Shown here one piece after another: positions 2,187 to 31,595 of a stretch of DNA of 64,000 nucleotides. The notes below the pieces were generated by a model. That model saw only the letters and a list, made by a program, of their open reading frames with translations. It ran no database searches and was not told where the DNA came from. Origin of the DNA: a virus (lineage: Duplodnaviria; Heunggongvirae; Uroviricota; Caudoviricetes); IMG/VR virus record IMGVR_UViG_3300027766_000002; one strand, 5' to 3'. Position 1 is the first letter of the stretch. The number at the start of each line of letters is the position of its first letter. Position numbers and translations under genes: made by a program.

Positions 2187-2924
2187 ATGAGCAATTTCTT
2201 TTACCAATGCTTAGGCAACGACGACCAGTATGGATTCATGGAAGAGTGGGATTCGGCCGTCATGGATGAGTGGGTCGCTAAGAACATAGGGCTGTCTCGC
2301 TGTAAAGGCGAAGCTGACCTCTTCGAGACTAAGTGGTTTGATTACCGCGACATGCACCCACTTCAGGCTACAGCTGTATTTACCGAAGAGTACAAACGCC
2401 AGTACGCCAACATCATGCTCACTCACGGTCGTGAAGACTTCCAGAGTGCGCCTTTCAACACCGGTTTAAAACGAGTTCCGTTTCAGGATCAGTCTGCCGC
2501 CAACAAAACCTCACTTTGGAAGGCTCGTCAGTTTGCCGATCGCTACTGCGTTAATTACGGCTACTTCATTGGCACCGTTCTATCGATCGCCGCATCTCGT
2601 CTCTGGGACAAGCTGCCACGCCCTCAACATCTTTGGCAGCCAGAGCTGATTGAGATCTTCGAAGACAGATTGAAGAAACGCGCGTTAACACGTCTGGATA
2701 GCTCTCTTTGGGGTTCTGGCTCTTCTGGGGTAATCGTGCAAGGGGACAACGTTGAAATCCAGCGAGACTACTTTGAGTGGCTTCTCACGCAGATTGAAAA
2801 TCGTGAGCCATCCCGTCGCGTTCTGATTATCTACTCCGCCGTTTGGCTGACAGAGCTTCTGCCCGAACACATAGCGCTTCAGCGCTTCCCTAACGAAATC
2901 ATGGAAGCACGGTCACTGAATTGA
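2187..2924 (+). CDS. Hypothetical protein
   Basis: 245 aa ORF with codon usage typical of the window. Preceded by palindrome-like motifs at 2141-2188. Confidence 0.5.
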   Translation: MSNFFYQCLGNDDQYGFMEEWDSAVMDEWVAKNIGLSRCKGEADLFETKWFDYRDMHPLQATAVFTEEYKRQYANIMLTHGREDFQSAPFNTGLKRVPFQDQSAANKTSLWKARQFADRYCVNYGYFIGTVLSIAASRLWDKLPRPQHLWQPELIEIFEDRLKKRALTRLDSSLWGSGSSGVIVQGDNVEIQRDYFEWLLTQIENREPSRRVLIIYSAVWLTELLPEHIALQRFPNEIMEARSLN

Positions 2925-2980
2925 TTGCCTTCGCCCACTTAGTAAACTTAGTAAACTTAATAAACAAGTTGTTTAGAACG

Positions 2981-3021
2981 ATGGAAAAGCACATGAACAT
3001 GATTAAAGAGGTGGCGCAATG
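2981..3021 (+). CDS. Leader peptide uORF (MEKHMNMIKEVAQ) translationally coupled to the helicase gene
   Basis: It carries the conserved ATGGAAAAGCACATG initiation motif. Its TGA stop overlaps the helicase ATG (ATGA). It contains the AAAGAGG Shine-Dalgarno for the downstream gene. Confidence 0.35.
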
Positions 3022-4359
3022 ACCACCATTTGCCATACCGGACGCCCATTGTCAGAAGAGTTTGATGATGACTTCCAGAACCGATTAACAGCTTACTACT
3101 GCAAGGATCAGGAGTTCCTGTTGCGCGCCGGGGATTTGGTTGATCCGAGCCAATTTGAAAACGCGGCAAACGCAATATTGGTTAACCTGGTTTCCTCTTA
3201 CTTCCGCATGTACAAGAGCGCACCTTCCAGCACGGCCATTCTCGACCAGCTGAAGCGCGCGAAGAAAGATAAGACGATCCGCGAAGAGCTGTTCCCGGAT
3301 GTGGTCGGCGCCTTCAAGCGTGTATTGGGTGAGAAATTGACAGACACCAAATACATGATTGACCGAGTGGCCACTTTTGCCCGGAGCATAGCTTTTGATG
3401 ACGCGCTGATCAAAGCGGCCGAGCTAAAAGAGAAGGGTGACTTCGAACGCGCCATGGAAGTGATGGCCAAGGTGCAGCTGGTGGGCGCGAGTGACACCAT
3501 AGGCATCTACAACTATCTGGGCGAAGCGGCCGAGCGTTTAAAGCAGCGTGAGTATGAGGCGTCTGAGGATTACGTACCAAACAGCATCACTACCGGCATA
3601 CCGCTGCTGGATCGACTGCTGTACCAGAAAGGGTGGGGGCGTCGTGAAATGGTTCTCTTCATGGGCTTCGCGAAGTCTGGTAAATCGACGGCCATGGGTG
3701 AGTTCTCCATTAACGCTACTTTAAAGGGCTTCAACGTTCTGTACGTCTCGCTGGAAGTTCACACCGCAATCTTGTCTGACCGTTTCGACGCACGTCTTTC
3801 TCAAACCGAAATGACGAAGTTGATCGAGAAGCGTGACGATGTTCATAAGAAGCTGGCCGACCTGGGCGCCAGTACCGGTGTGGGCAATTTGTGGGTTGTG
3901 GAGAGACCGTCTGGCAGCTTGTCACCTGCAGACCTCGATCGATTACTTGAAGGCATGAAGTCGAACGGGATGGTTCCTGACATGGTCGTGGTGGATTACG
4001 CCGACCTGATGAAACCAACACGACGCAGCGGCGATGAACGAGCAGATGTGAAAAGCATCTATACCGATCTCCGCGCAGTCTTCGACAAACACAATGCCGC
4101 TGGCATCACTGCATCCCAGACAAACCGAGAGGGTGGGGCGTCTGAGGTAGCCACGATGATGCACGCCGCAGATAACATTGAAAAGGTGCGTATCGCTGAC
4201 CTGGTAATCTCGATCAACAAAACGGAAGAGGAAGCAACGAAGGGTGAAGCGCGCTTGTACTTTGCAGGCTCTCGTAACCAGAAAGGCAACATCAGCATCC
4301 GAGTAAAGCAGAACCTGGAGCAGATGCGGTTTATTCAGGAAATTCTCGACGTTATCTAA
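3019..4359 (+). CDS. DnaB-like replicative DNA helicase (RecA-fold C-terminal domain)
   Basis: Walker A motif GFAKSGKST, followed by Walker B-like VVVDYADLM and a helicase C-terminal domain. 446 aa. Confidence 0.6.
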   Translation: MTTICHTGRPLSEEFDDDFQNRLTAYYCKDQEFLLRAGDLVDPSQFENAANAILVNLVSSYFRMYKSAPSSTAILDQLKRAKKDKTIREELFPDVVGAFKRVLGEKLTDTKYMIDRVATFARSIAFDDALIKAAELKEKGDFERAMEVMAKVQLVGASDTIGIYNYLGEAAERLKQREYEASEDYVPNSITTGIPLLDRLLYQKGWGRREMVLFMGFAKSGKSTAMGEFSINATLKGFNVLYVSLEVHTAILSDRFDARLSQTEMTKLIEKRDDVHKKLADLGASTGVGNLWVVERPSGSLSPADLDRLLEGMKSNGMVPDMVVVDYADLMKPTRRSGDERADVKSIYTDLRAVFDKHNAAGITASQTNREGGASEVATMMHAADNIEKVRIADLVISINKTEEEATKGEARLYFAGSRNQKGNISIRVKQNLEQMRFIQEILDVI

Positions 4360-4450
4360 AAAATAAAGGCGTGGCAAAAATCGCCACGCCTCATTTCCAA
4401 TTCGAGAAATCAAGTTTCTCGCCCTGTTAAAAACAACAAGGGAAAAACAC

Positions 4451-4531
4451 ATGAGCGGCCATCATACCCCATCTTCCCTAATACACACAAAATTGCCTTC
4501 AAATTATGACCGAAGAGGATTGCTGGCATGA
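4451..4531 (+). CDS. 26-codon leader uORF coupled to the primase gene
   Basis: It starts at the conserved GGAAAAACACATG motif. It has no internal stop, and its TGA overlaps the primase ATG (ATGA). Confidence 0.3.
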   Translation: MSGHHTPSSLIHTKLPSNYDRRGLLA

Positions 4532-5643
4532 GCGACATTAAAGAGCTTTTGACCGAGCTGGACTTTGAGCAGTGGCTCGATACAGAGGGCATCATCTATC
4601 GCCGTGGTGGTGTCAGCGCGCGCGGTCGTGAAATAAACATCAAGGAGTGCCCGGTATGCGGCAGCTCCGGTTGGAAGGTGTATTTCAATCTGACCAACAA
4701 CGTCGGCAAATGCTTTGCGGGTGATCACCCAGAAGAGATTCAATTCAACAAGCTGGTATTCCTGAAGCATTACAGCGGCAAGTCACGCCGTGCATTTGAG
4801 GAATACGTGAACAATGCGCTGCTGGAGCAGGGCTGGGCGCCGAAACGAGAAGAGGTAAAACTGACCAGCGCCGTCGAGCTGGAAGGGCCGGTTTCGTTGC
4901 CGCGTCACTATGAGCTTCCGATCGAGGGTCAACTACCCACTTATCTTGTGGAGAGAAATGTAACGCCTGAGCTGGCCAAATATTTCGACCTTAGATACTG
5001 CGTAGAGGGCAAACATGCTTATGTGGATGTCTACAACGACCAGGTTCGTGGCCAAGATTTCGGTATGCGTATTCTGATACCAATTTACGACCTCGATGGT
5101 GTGATGAAAACCTTCCAGGGGCGTGACGTTACTGGCACTGCGGAGCGCCGCTACCTCTTCCCCATGACGTTGCCGGCGTCAGGTAAGTTTCTCTATAACG
5201 GCCACAACGCAGTGGGTAAACAGACTGTCGTGGTGAGCGAGGGTGCATTTGACGTTATTGGGATCAAGCGAGCACTGTTCGATGAGCCAACGCTGCGGGA
5301 TTACGTTGAGCCAATCGGGACGTTTGGTATGCATTTATCTGGTGTAACGACGCAGGACGAAGAGGATCAGTTAGGTGCATTCCTGACGCTCAAAGCGAAG
5401 GGGCTGAAGAACGTCGTAATGATGTGGGACAGTGAGAAGCAGGCAATCCGAAACACAATGGCCGCCGCGCGTAAGCTGGTGGGGATCGGACTTAACGTGA
5501 AGATTGCCTGTTTGGGCAAAGAGGGCGTTGACCCGGGCGACGCATCTGTTGAGGAAATCATCAAAGCATACTTCCGAGCGAAGCCCTACACTCGCCAGCT
5601 TGAGTTAATGGCAAAGGTAAAAGGAATAGCGGCTTTGGTCTGA
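4528..5643 (+). CDS. DnaG-like DNA primase (zinc-ribbon + TOPRIM)
   Basis: A CPVCGSSGW…CFAGDH zinc-binding motif and a TOPRIM-like VVVSEGAFDVIGI segment. It lies adjacent to the helicase. Confidence 0.65.
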   Translation: MSDIKELLTELDFEQWLDTEGIIYRRGGVSARGREINIKECPVCGSSGWKVYFNLTNNVGKCFAGDHPEEIQFNKLVFLKHYSGKSRRAFEEYVNNALLEQGWAPKREEVKLTSAVELEGPVSLPRHYELPIEGQLPTYLVERNVTPELAKYFDLRYCVEGKHAYVDVYNDQVRGQDFGMRILIPIYDLDGVMKTFQGRDVTGTAERRYLFPMTLPASGKFLYNGHNAVGKQTVVVSEGAFDVIGIKRALFDEPTLRDYVEPIGTFGMHLSGVTTQDEEDQLGAFLTLKAKGLKNVVMMWDSEKQAIRNTMAAARKLVGIGLNVKIACLGKEGVDPGDASVEEIIKAYFRAKPYTRQLELMAKVKGIAALV

Positions 5644-5708
5644 CCTAAGAAAATAAGTAGCTAACCACCAATCATTAATTATAATGGCGACCAAAGTTTA
5701 TAAGAGAG

Positions 5709-6491
5709 ATGAAGATGCACCCGAATATCACTCATGAAATCACAAAGCTGGTTAGAGATTCAAAGCTGCCGCTGAACGAAGAAGAGTTCGACTCGGTTGT
5801 TGTCCAGGCTATTCAGGCTGGAGCTGACAGAATTGCGACCGCAGAGGCTGGCAAGTTGCTGCTGGCCGACTATCCGTATTTGACGGTCACCATGGTTGTT
5901 GGCGATGTTCGCCCCAGCGTGGGAAACGAAGCGCCTCGATGCGCTGCGATCGTCAGCTTTATCAGCCGAATGGGAGATTCACCTGTCACACATACAGCCG
6001 CTTACTACAACGGCTACATTGTCCAGACCCAGACCGTTCTTGAAGAGCTGCACCGTGACGACCTATGGAAGTTCGTTGAGTTCATGGACGAAAAATGCGA
6101 AAGCGTGGAGTCCTCTTCGGCCATAAAAGAACTATGGGCAACGAGTGTGGTTGGTGACGACAACACTGCAAATATGAGTGTCCCGGAAGGCATGGTTGAC
6201 CTGGTTCTGGAAGGGCGAGGAACCGCCACCAAAGCGGCTAATGAGAAGAACTTCCCAGCGTTAATGAAATTGACCGGTGGCGATCGTCGCAAGCAGGACA
6301 TTATCAACGCCTGCAGTTCAGCCTGCGATGGCGTTATGGGCGAGTACGAACGTCGCCTGGTGAAGATGTCTAACGAAATGCCAATGTTGATGCAGGAAGC
6401 CAAATCATACGCTCTGCACACCGCTGAAGAGCTTCTGAAGCCTTTCCGCGACCGACAACACGCCGTCATGTCTGGCTGGGGAAGCTGGTAG
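5709..6491 (+). CDS. Hypothetical protein
   Basis: 260 aa ORF followed by a hairpin + T-run terminator at 6509-6530. Confidence 0.5.
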   Translation: MKMHPNITHEITKLVRDSKLPLNEEEFDSVVVQAIQAGADRIATAEAGKLLLADYPYLTVTMVVGDVRPSVGNEAPRCAAIVSFISRMGDSPVTHTAAYYNGYIVQTQTVLEELHRDDLWKFVEFMDEKCESVESSSAIKELWATSVVGDDNTANMSVPEGMVDLVLEGRGTATKAANEKNFPALMKLTGGDRRKQDIINACSSACDGVMGEYERRLVKMSNEMPMLMQEAKSYALHTAEELLKPFRDRQHAVMSGWGSW

Positions 6492-6508
6492 CCTGACAAA
6501 AACGCTAT

Positions 6509-31406: not shown

Positions 31407-31595
31407 ATGATTAAGTTCTACACCTTCACAATTGGAGTGATTGCATCTGCCTTAGCGGTGTATCGATTCATTGTGCCAGCACTGTTCTCACTGAGTGATG
31501 ATTTCGCCATGGTTTTGGCCGTTGTTATCGCTCTTTCTTATCCGGTCGCCCTGGTGACCATCTCTAAAAAAGTATGGAAACGCAAAAAGAAATGA
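31407..31595 (+). CDS. Small membrane protein (NfeD-like partner, tentative)
   Basis: 62 aa with two hydrophobic helices. Preceded by GGAAAAACACATG. Its stop overlaps the next gene's start. Confidence 0.4.
   Translation: MIKFYTFTIGVIASALAVYRFIVPALFSLSDDFAMVLAVVIALSYPVALVTISKKVWKRKKK

Follow-up and report, generated by a model that had tools for sequence, protein, structure and literature searches.

The window analysed here, i.e., a 64,000-nucleotide stretch of viral DNA from IMG/VR record IMGVR_UViG_3300027766_000002, carries in tandem the genes of a replicative helicase and of a DNA primase, with the start codon of each overlapped by the stop codon of a very short upstream open reading frame (ORF). 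As judged by its closest matches the window is part of an SSU5-like phage-plasmid, since positions 2500-6500 display 75% nucleotide identity with Salmonella phage SSU5 and match as well 208 plasmid records, the top ones being plasmids of Cronobacter sp. JZ38 (96%) and Enterobacter sp. CP102 (93.5%). Widespread in Klebsiella, E. coli, Salmonella, and Enterobacter, SSU5-like phage-plasmids in some cases carry resistance genes. What is argued here, with moderate confidence, is that the short ORF preceding the primase is a leader which would pass ribosomes on to the primase start and whose own translation would be under the control of a small antisense RNA, with the short ORF preceding the helicase being instead a recent and optional addition.

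The features of the locus are as follows, given in order of position, with SD standing for Shine-Dalgarno sequence, nt for nucleotides, and aa for amino acids.

2981 to 3022, plus strand: helicase mini-ORF, read directly from the sequence, of 13 codons from ATG 2981 (9 from cassette ATG 2993).
2983 to 2995, plus strand: start cassette, helicase copy, GGAAAAGCAC-ATG, a family-wide initiation motif found in relatives directly on the helicase ATG.
2996 to 3021, plus strand: 26-nt insertion AACATGATTAAAGAGGTGGCGCAATG, containing the SD GAGGTGG (3008-3014) and the helicase ATG now used, as seen by comparison with 35 distinct relative sequences without it.
3019 to 4359, plus strand: DnaB-like replicative helicase, 446 aa (Pfam DnaB_C, E = 1.8e-11; same annotation in SSU5 and plasmids).
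4355 to 4453, minus strand: predicted antisense RNA of approximately 95-100 nt, with a 5' end, (C)AUGUGUUUUUCCC, that is complementary to the leader cassette, followed by stem-loop SL-I and then by a terminator.
4356 to 4392, minus strand: intrinsic terminator, stem 4366-4392, with a U-tract (complement of 4356-4365) overlapping the helicase stop codon; 12 pairs in the terminator scan, tail TATTTTTTAG.
4414 to 4448, minus strand: stem-loop SL-I, one arm formed by the purine tract of the primase-leader cassette (its SD part), the second by complementary upstream sequence.
4440 to 4453, plus strand: start cassette, primase-leader copy, GGGAAAAACAC-ATG, whose ATG is kept 47-77 nt upstream of the primase in relatives.
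4451 to 4531, plus strand: primase leader ORF of 26 codons (MSGHHTPSSLIHTKLPSNYDRRGLLA), with TGA 4529-4531 overlapping primase ATG 4528-4530.
4461 to 4466, minus strand: predicted -10 element TATGAT (leader nt +10 to +15), with TAnnAT exactly here in all clades.
4485 to 4490, minus strand: predicted -35 element TTGTGT, 18-nt spacer, with TTGnnn at the equivalent place in all clades.
4515 to 4519, plus strand: the primase's own SD, GAGGA, inside the leader and 8 nt before the ATG (duplex -5.8 kcal/mol).
4528 to 5643, plus strand: DnaG/TOPRIM-type DNA primase, 371 aa (weak Pfam DNAG_N match, E = 6.9e-5; SSU5, Cyrano, and many plasmids have it annotated as DNA primase).

Relatives compared consist of 80 loci from IMG/VR and 5 from species genomes, plus annotated plasmids and phages. 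A profile scan of species genomes using the primase alignment yielded five loci only and no distant relatives; intermediate relatives were found via tblastn against plasmids. Searching with the primase protein matched 931 plasmid records, 711 of which, with at least 80% identity, belong to the SSU5-like group.

What the two short ORFs have in common is how they begin. The sequence GGAAAARCAC followed by ATG, described here as a start cassette, recurs over the window, with the pattern A[AG]CACATG occurring 17 times on the plus strand and not once on the minus strand. Fifteen of these 17 copies head ORFs that are 62-785 codons long, the sole two exceptions being the helicase and primase mini-ORF sites. 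GGAAAARCAC-ATG is one ribosome-loading cassette common to DNA-replication and nucleotide-metabolism genes. Ahead of the primase, ATG 4451 directly follows AAGGGAAAAACAC. Ahead of the helicase, ATG 2981 occupies the motif's SD position (ATGGA in place of AAGGA, as seen likewise at motif sites 18284 and 27935). The motif ATG there is at 2993, in frame with ATG 2981, and the motif-driven helicase mini-ORF therefore is one of 9 codons.

The cassette in addition changes in concert within a genome. In plasmid CP037443 (Klebsiella sp. PO552; loci L100-L102) it reads GAGAAAATACAC-ATG, with T at -5 in eight sites including that of the primase leader, versus A at -5 in all window copies. The genes so headed in CP037443 are those for SbcD, ribonucleotide reductase, DNA polymerase III alpha, uracil-DNA glycosylase, and similar replication, repair, or nucleotide-metabolism functions. 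Single genes can gain or lose the cassette between genomes, e.g., uracil-DNA glycosylase, which has it in CP037443 and lacks it in the window (24510). Concerted change at unlinked, orthologous starts implies some putative trans-acting reader of the cassette.

One further cassette, at 31407, heads a strongly hydrophobic ORF of 62 codons (31407-31595; MIKFYTFTIGVIASALAVYRFIVPALF...), probably a real small membrane protein. That ORF overlaps by 22 nt the SD-less ATG of a 287-aa ORF at 31574, and this may be another coupling to a small cassette-driven ORF.

A preliminary description of this DNA had the conserved motif sitting on short upstream ORFs of 13 and 26 codons, each with a stop codon overlapping the main ATG (ATGA), and had the helicase ORF containing the SD of the main gene as well, all of which is confirmed from the sequence, including the SD GAGGTGG at 3008-3014. 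Both junctions fit generic stop-start coupling, that is, ATGA with the downstream SD inside of the upstream ORF, and the primase frame itself is closed upstream by TGA 4507-4509. Junctions of the type ATGA, GTGA, or TAATG between long ORFs are found at least 10 times in the window, e.g., at 1569, 7027, 7431, 10038, 25933, 29947, 50998, and 56293. Given composition-preserving shuffles with randomised frame, the window's primase leader would reach the main start with a chance of approximately 0.22, and if the helicase case is similar, as it should be, then both overlaps together have a chance on the order of 0.05. Taken by themselves, the two ATGA overlaps are only mildly improbable, and the weight lies with the comparative data.

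In every lineage, to 65% protein identity, the motif ATG is found 47-77 nt upstream of the primase start. Nine lineage types are seen, as follows, with positions given relative to that start.

Motif ATG at -66 and -69, SSU group: leader fused in frame, without stop; junction codon GTG.
Motif ATG at -48, K. pneumoniae plasmid L093: leader fused in frame, without stop; junction codon ATG.
Motif ATG at -68, SSU5 itself: leader of 23 codons, ATGA overlap; junction codon ATG.
Motif ATG at -77, the window's clade: leader of 26 codons, ATGA overlap; junction codon ATG.
Motif ATG at -71 and -47, two lineages: leader stop 2 nt before the primase ATG; junction codon ATG.
Motif ATG at -67 and -48, two lineages (L073 group and L092): leader stop after 6 codons; junction codons GTG and ATG, respectively.

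By leader form, three of these types thus are fused, two overlap as ATGA, two stop 2 nt upstream, and two stop early. Fused leaders of the SSU group have GTG as junction codon each time, with ATG found for out-of-frame leaders that stop on or beside the start; the exception is Klebsiella L093. For one fused form the PGAP annotation begins at the motif ATG (394 aa). Over a neighbor-joining tree of the primases the leader forms are interleaved, including with the ATG/out-of-frame form nested inside of the GTG/in-frame form, and repeated switching of form therefore is indicated. Of the 9 lineage types, 7 have a leader that extends to the primase start, versus a mean probability of 0.15 that is expected when each leader is shuffled and placed in a random frame. 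The C-71 lineage has a weak main SD (-3.0 kcal/mol) along with a leader ending at the primase start. Motif-less type E relatives (L056, L057, and L060), with the cassette region replaced, 110 nt upstream of the primase, possess a different, 24-codon leader (SD GAGGGA) whose TAA is found 11-13 nt inside of the primase, and there the primase ATG is without an SD (+0.4 kcal/mol). These relatives keep as well a promoter-like site on the minus strand, TTGAAA-16-TACCAT.

The leader peptides, by contrast with the position of the cassette, are unrelated between clades (MSGHHTPSS..., MSLYGIQ..., MYGHIN, MRLNLTK...), vary in frame and length, and contain no conserved peptide or arrest motif as compared across clades. 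A leader acting through its sequence, i.e., by arrest or attenuation of the ermCL, SecM, or TnaC type, was considered and is rejected, as the leader peptides are not conserved. Translation of the leader nevertheless is what we would infer from the cassette heading 15 long ORFs, from the annotation of the fused form, and from the GTG/ATG junction pattern (L093 excepted). As the lineages together show, a cassette plus a short, presumably translated spacer ahead of the primase is ancient, with peptide, length, and frame of the spacer free to vary. On these comparisons, the passing of upstream-loaded ribosomes to the primase start is a well-supported candidate for a family trait. What has been kept of the primase's upstream ORF consequently is the arrangement, with its motif ATG at -47 to -77, and not a peptide nor a fixed ORF. 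The primase leaders may be viewed, too, as a natural series, one in which a single translated spacer switches between N-terminal extension and overlapping leader ORF, and which could be useful for studies of termination-reinitiation.

Leader sequences from three otherwise unalignable clades, if anchored on the motif ATG, share the positions +10 A, +11 T, +14 T, +15 A, +20 A, +35 C, +36 A, and +42 T. Six of the eight spell, on the minus strand, TAnnAT plus the TG of TTG, with +10 to +15 supplying the former and +36/+35 the latter, and with the TTG found 16 nt upstream of the TAnnAT on that strand (18 nt for the window's TTGTGT). Across clades the -10 hexamers are TATGAT, TACCAT/TATCAT, TAACAT, TAATAT, and TAAGAT and the -35 hexamers TTGTGT, TTGATA, TTGTGA, TTGCAT, and TTGCCA, with spacers of 16-18 nt. 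A position-weight scan places the best minus-strand sigma70-like promoter at this same location in 17 of 18 representatives, with the site ranked second in the remaining one, a Buttiauxella gaviniae contig (L091). Among 18 motif sites in the window, ATnnTA at +10 to +15 is found at the primase-leader copy only. A conserved, sigma70-type promoter on the opposite strand, within leader codons 4-14, is thereby shown in silico, the evidence for this predicted promoter being its fixed position across divergent sequence and not its score.

The L091 locus merits separate mention. Its stem-loop and terminator are intact and its -10 (TACCAT) is kept, with the -35 weakened to CTGATA. Its leader ATG having become ACG, this locus may be a natural leader-start knock-out.

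Downstream on that same minus strand, as just listed, are SL-I and the terminator. SL-I is found in every lineage between the terminator hairpin and the motif, with a motif arm of CAAGGGAAAAAC, CAAAAGAAAAA, or CCGAGAAAA and a partner arm that changes in step, giving rise to double changes in 5 of 11 pairs. The terminator displays compensatory changes in 6 of 8 modelled pairs and has the same polarity in all clades, i.e., 5-8 T on the minus strand with only a weak plus-strand tail, these tails having been read from the alignment because an automated count, which paired the U-tract with the A-tract, was unreliable. Minus-strand folds have z values of -3.3 to -6.4 (window, -39.6 kcal/mol, z = -6.4). 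A covariance model (R1) that was built from SSU-group and Klebsiella sequences only, leaving out the window's clade, matches the minus strand of the window at 4355-4453 (57 bits, E = 1.8e-10) and finds nothing else in the 64 kb. Other genomes likewise have one match each, including in clades outside of the training set, with that in CP037443 (113 kb) the single match there at E = 5.5e-5. RNAalifold as applied to a plain MAFFT alignment recovers the terminator only, as SL-I is misaligned between clades, and an alignment guided by the covariance model, leaning to that model, hence was used: 95.4% of its cells are paired and 11 of 19 pairs have compensatory double changes, values reached in none of 500 shuffles, with slid controls at 50-68%.

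Taken together, the promoter, stem-loop, and terminator point to a predicted antisense RNA of approximately 95 nt, one which the control region before the primase probably makes. Its unpaired 5' end, (C)AUGUGU, together with the 5' arm of SL-I, is complementary to the leader's SD, spacer, and AUG. A permissive-threshold Rfam search of 2800-4700 produced sub-threshold noise only, with no matching family, and targeted literature searches turned up nothing describing this cassette or antisense RNA; the module of leader and predicted antisense RNA, while conserved, would thus seem to be previously undescribed. No plus-strand promoter is predicted in the helicase-primase intergenic region, so that the primase probably is read from a helicase-primase transcript. 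Gene-level values from RNA-seq of a Cyrano lysogen are approximately 21 for helicase and 11 for primase, in fragments per kilobase per million mapped reads (FPKM).

Two minor observations concern this same RNA. The CATG of the cassette (4450-4453) is palindromic, so that the 5' end of the predicted antisense RNA would fall on or beside an AUG, as with a leaderless mRNA. A minus-strand ORF of 169 codons (3943-4452) represents read-through of the predicted RNA across its terminator, the SSU5 frame stopping right after the U-tract, and this ORF is probably meaningless.

The helicase presents a different history. Following ATG 2981-2983 its mini-ORF reads GAA AAG CAC ATG AAC ATG ATT AAA GAG GTG GCG CAA TGA, with this TGA (3020-3022) overlapping the helicase ATG (3019-3021) as ATGA and with the helicase SD, GAGGTGG, within the mini-ORF. 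In 35 of 35 distinct helicase upstream sequences of the SSU5-like group, however, the motif is directly on the helicase ATG, e.g., aaaggaaagcacATGACCGAA. The same is seen in two Klebsiella plasmids of 70% identity (aaggaaagcacATGACCACT), and a degenerate motif, gagaaaggacATG, is found at the same place in the 65% plasmid of PO552. Both mini-ORF and 26-nt insertion are present solely in the window and its six closest relatives (seven sequences, 93-100% identity). As 26 is no multiple of three, the motif ATG has come to open a separate frame ending at the new helicase ATG. Junction variants within this clade (caATGA, tcATGA, gTAATGA) all leave a stop on the start codon, though divergence there is too low for this to be called selection. 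The inserted SD pairs with the anti-SD at -7.6 versus the motif's -3.3 kcal/mol and is found under a 5-bp GGUGG/CCACC hairpin, one however with z = -0.3 versus shuffles. The insertion sequence is unique within the window, i.e., without a duplicated source there.

The helicase mini-ORF therefore is best seen, from this comparison, as a young side product of an insertion which gave the helicase a conventional initiation region. Cassette-started ribosomes presumably would still end on the helicase AUG, while the helicase probably can also initiate independently, and coupling for the helicase thus is optional at best. The preliminary description had made helicase translation dependent on this ORF. 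Such dependence is unproven and also not needed, given the insertion's youth and the stronger SD that it supplies, nor is the ORF itself conserved among relatives beyond the window's clade. Coupling as an interpretation accordingly holds up well for the primase, with 7 of 9 lineage types reaching its start, and only weakly for the helicase, with its recent insertion.

The scheme favored here would operate as follows. Helicase and primase would be found on one transcript, with ribosomes loading at the leader cassette and translating the leader. In the window, termination would occur at the UGA that is on the primase AUG (AUGA), followed by re-initiation as aided by the SD inside of the leader. 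The leader would carry ribosomes from the cassette across the approximately 50-80 nt that house the antisense promoter, doing so as an N-terminal extension in some lineages and as a termination-reinitiation ORF in others. Antisense RNA, in pairing with the leader initiation region, would block leader translation and thereby result in less primase, and would be the regulator that the preliminary description had only assumed.

A number of observations weigh against this scheme. The main-gene SDs equal or exceed the cassette in strength (-5.8 and -7.6 versus -3 to -5.6 kcal/mol), and no significant fold is found over the main starts (2975-3050, 2990-3035, 4436-4560, 4495-4560, and SSU5 equivalents; z = -0.3 to -0.8 versus shuffles, with those around the primase start -0.4 to -0.8), so that with no significant structure hiding them the main genes could plausibly initiate on their own. 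In two lineage types the leader ends after 6 codons, and in L091 the leader ATG is changed to ACG, with the primase kept in all of these (start GTG in L091). The leader arrangement, going by these variants, is apparently dispensable, and since the main genes possess good SDs, coupling in the window may perhaps only modulate expression. The nominal p of 5e-5 for 7 of 9 is overstated because lineage types share ancestry. As for the antisense RNA, individual promoter scores are unexceptional (9.0-12.8), with TTGTGT-18-TATGAT of the window, at 9.0, above the background median of 7.2 for the best site per 250 nt and short of 10.5, the 90th percentile for best sites in random windows of that length. 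A default promoter scan lists no promoter in 4400-4700, the antisense one being seen only by position-weight scan and cross-clade comparison. The strand asymmetry, i.e., minus more stable than plus in 32 of 32 distinct sequences along with, for SL-I, canonical pairing of 96.7% (minus) versus 82.6% (plus) and 47 G.U cells on the minus versus 0 on the plus strand, is partly what a U-rich minus strand would lead one to expect, with the alignment itself fitted to the model.

Several of these points are just what would be anticipated had the coupling no role at all, both genes starting on their own SDs and the leader being kept as promoter and target of the antisense RNA. Control then would be via duplex-triggered cleavage or decay of the mRNA, or instead via transcriptional interference, without leader translation. 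Strong main SDs, main starts without occluding structure, intact primases behind early-stop (L073 group, L092) and start-less (L091) leaders, and an unconstrained leader peptide all agree with this, as does the helicase insertion, which looks like a plain swap of initiation regions. It would not, however, account for the strong enrichment of open leaders that reach the primase start. Nor would it explain why lineages with a weak or absent main SD (C-71, -3.0; type E, +0.4 kcal/mol) end the leader at or across that start, or why the junction is GTG in fused lineages of the SSU group and ATG in out-of-frame ones (L093, though fused, keeping ATG). We consider this explanation to be unlikely.

Nor is it probable that the two mini-ORFs are equivalent, selected coupling devices, as the preliminary description had proposed, with initiation at the motif regulated by some factor and no antisense RNA involved. 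Both ORFs do start on the cassette, end in ATGA, and hold the main SD, the primase leader does reach the primase start in most lineages, and the concerted evolution of the cassette (T at -5 in eight sites of PO552) calls for a trans-acting reader that could be a protein. The helicase mini-ORF, however, is missing from relatives outside of the window's close clade. Left unexplained as well are why the only conserved leader positions are those of a minus-strand promoter, why the terminator U-tract is on the minus strand, and why the cassette is embedded in a covarying stem-loop.

A third alternative does away with the antisense RNA, such that the hairpin is a helicase terminator, perhaps bidirectional, the stem-loop masks the leader SD within the mRNA, and the minus-strand promoter is a chance match. 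That hairpins are symmetric on both strands, that the window's promoter score is unremarkable, and that neither Rfam nor the literature searches supplied a match are all in keeping with this possibility. It is doubtful given that TAnnAT and TTG are conserved, at fixed distance from the cassette, in leaders which cannot otherwise be aligned, that U-tracts are consistently of the minus strand, and that G.U cells are found there and not on the plus strand. Very improbable, lastly, is that the window's primase is extended N-terminally from the cassette ATG through programmed frameshifting, or that its arrangement is an assembly error. Leaders are, it is true, in frame in three lineage types, for one of which PGAP places the start at the cassette ATG. 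The out-of-frame arrangement, however, is common to seven independent sequences from the clade of the window, and SSU5 has a TAA 6 nt upstream in the primase frame. Frameshift and mis-assembly indeed were rejected upon inspection, with the primase frame closed at TGA 4507-4509, no slippery sequence in the 18 nt leading to the ATG, and the seven sequences in agreement.

Control by leader and antisense RNA, as favored here for the primase, has counterparts among plasmids. The tap leader of the IncFII plasmid R1 is 24 codons in length. As with R1 CopA/tap/repA, a replication gene is preceded by a short leader ORF that stops at its start (26 codons here), downstream translation would follow from leader translation, and a minus-strand RNA with stem-loops and terminator is predicted. 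Unlike with R1, the gene under putative control is a DnaG-type phage primase and not the Rep initiator of a plasmid. The predicted RNA extends over both SD and AUG of the leader itself, with CopT in R1 being found upstream of tap. No structure masking the main ribosome-binding site (RBS) was detected, and some relatives have leader and gene fused in frame. In R1 itself, according to PMC8053102, citing Blomberg et al. 1992, a constitutive antisense RNA of approximately 90 nt (stem-loops plus intrinsic terminator) opposite the leader region blocks leader translation. Further such systems are Inc RNA/RNAI with the repY (repB) leader and repZ (repA) in IncI1 ColIb-P9 and IncB pMU720, and RepR, AS RNA, and PcnR in IncI2 pHNSHP45, where the 19-aa RepR overlaps the repA start (PMC8053102). 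Their antisense RNAs, of approximately 70-108 nt, are read off the leader's complementary strand, and the leader start region is a stem-loop (PMC8053102). The primase module resembles these in having a leader ORF that overlaps the downstream start codon, a predicted antisense RNA, and a leader start in a stem-loop, and differs in that the target is a primase, in that the leader start employs a cassette common to approximately 15 other genes, and in that no partner of the ProQ/FinO type was identified.

Phage-plasmids possess a parallel of their own. In the immI region of P1 the small c4 RNA blocks the RBS of an upstream ORF, icd, to which ant is translationally coupled; c4 is processed from a same-strand operon transcript, acts at repeated target sites, and regulates an antirepressor. 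What is held in common with c4/icd/ant is a small RNA (here a predicted one) that is directed against the RBS of a small upstream ORF in a phage-plasmid. What differs is that here the predicted RNA is a true cis-antisense transcript that has a promoter to itself, and that the gene regulated would be that of a replication enzyme. Ordinary ATGA coupling of phages has the same four-base junction, though here the upstream partner is an ORF of 9-26 codons without conserved product, and the only evident role of these mini-ORFs is to bring ribosomes from the conserved initiation cassette. By analogy, then, the primase module would work like the antisense/leader family of Rep control systems, without being filed here as a member of that family.

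A further-reaching possibility, which we consider improbable, is that the predicted antisense RNA, besides controlling the primase in cis, acts in trans as master repressor of the entire cassette regulon. By way of its free 5' end, (C)AUGUGUUUUUCC, it would then pair with the GGAAAARCAC-AUG regions of approximately 17 replication and nucleotide-metabolism genes, including at the helicase mini-ORF start. Predicted duplexes with cassette sites of the window are -18 to -29 kcal/mol versus -8.9 +/- 3.5 for other gene starts, a difference built in from the outset, the RNA being complementary to one of the cassette copies. Action in trans would explain the strong conservation of the SD-to-AUG spacer, the purine-purine variable positions (as both A-U and G.U pair with U), and the concerted change of cassettes within a genome (T at -5 in CP037443, including in the RNA's complement). 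A cassette-reading protein explains the concerted evolution equally well. If the RNA did act in trans, then the lytic replication program would be held down during the element's life as a plasmid. The locus suggests an answer to how SSU5-like elements might keep these genes quiet, in the form of a plasmid-style module of countertranscript and leader ORF placed before a phage primase, with its target the start cassette common to a replication regulon.

The relatives add some context. Aeromonas and Acinetobacter relatives (approximately 40% identity) have neither the cassette nor the leader/antisense module, and the polarity of change therefore is not set beyond the Enterobacteriaceae. The plasmid replicon of relatives is typed separately (IncFIB or rep_cluster), with the PO552 plasmid having a RepB-family gene elsewhere. 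In one of the approximately 40%-identity relatives, Aeromonas caviae plasmid NZ_CP091177 (L095; locus 1-285), an Hfq homologue is encoded directly 5' of the helicase, and this may have a bearing on RNA-based control within the wider group.

Upstream of the helicase cassette, by approximately 20 nt, is a palindrome, AAACAAGTTGTTT, at 2962-2974, and it is kept upstream of the helicase in all relatives, including the Klebsiella plasmids of 65-70% identity. Perfect copies, AAACAAnTTGTTT, are found at 10 window sites versus 0.25 expected (2962-2974, 18246, 32495, 46827, 49859, 57054, 57771, 58373, 62421, and 62472), most of them a few tens of nt upstream of gene starts. The palindrome probably is the operator of a phage-plasmid regulator or instead part of a promoter class. 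Just upstream of the first of these sites, and overlapping it, is a 9-nt tandem repeat, TTAGTAAAC, which is present in three copies at 2939-2965 and in two copies in the close relative L004, copy number thus being variable.

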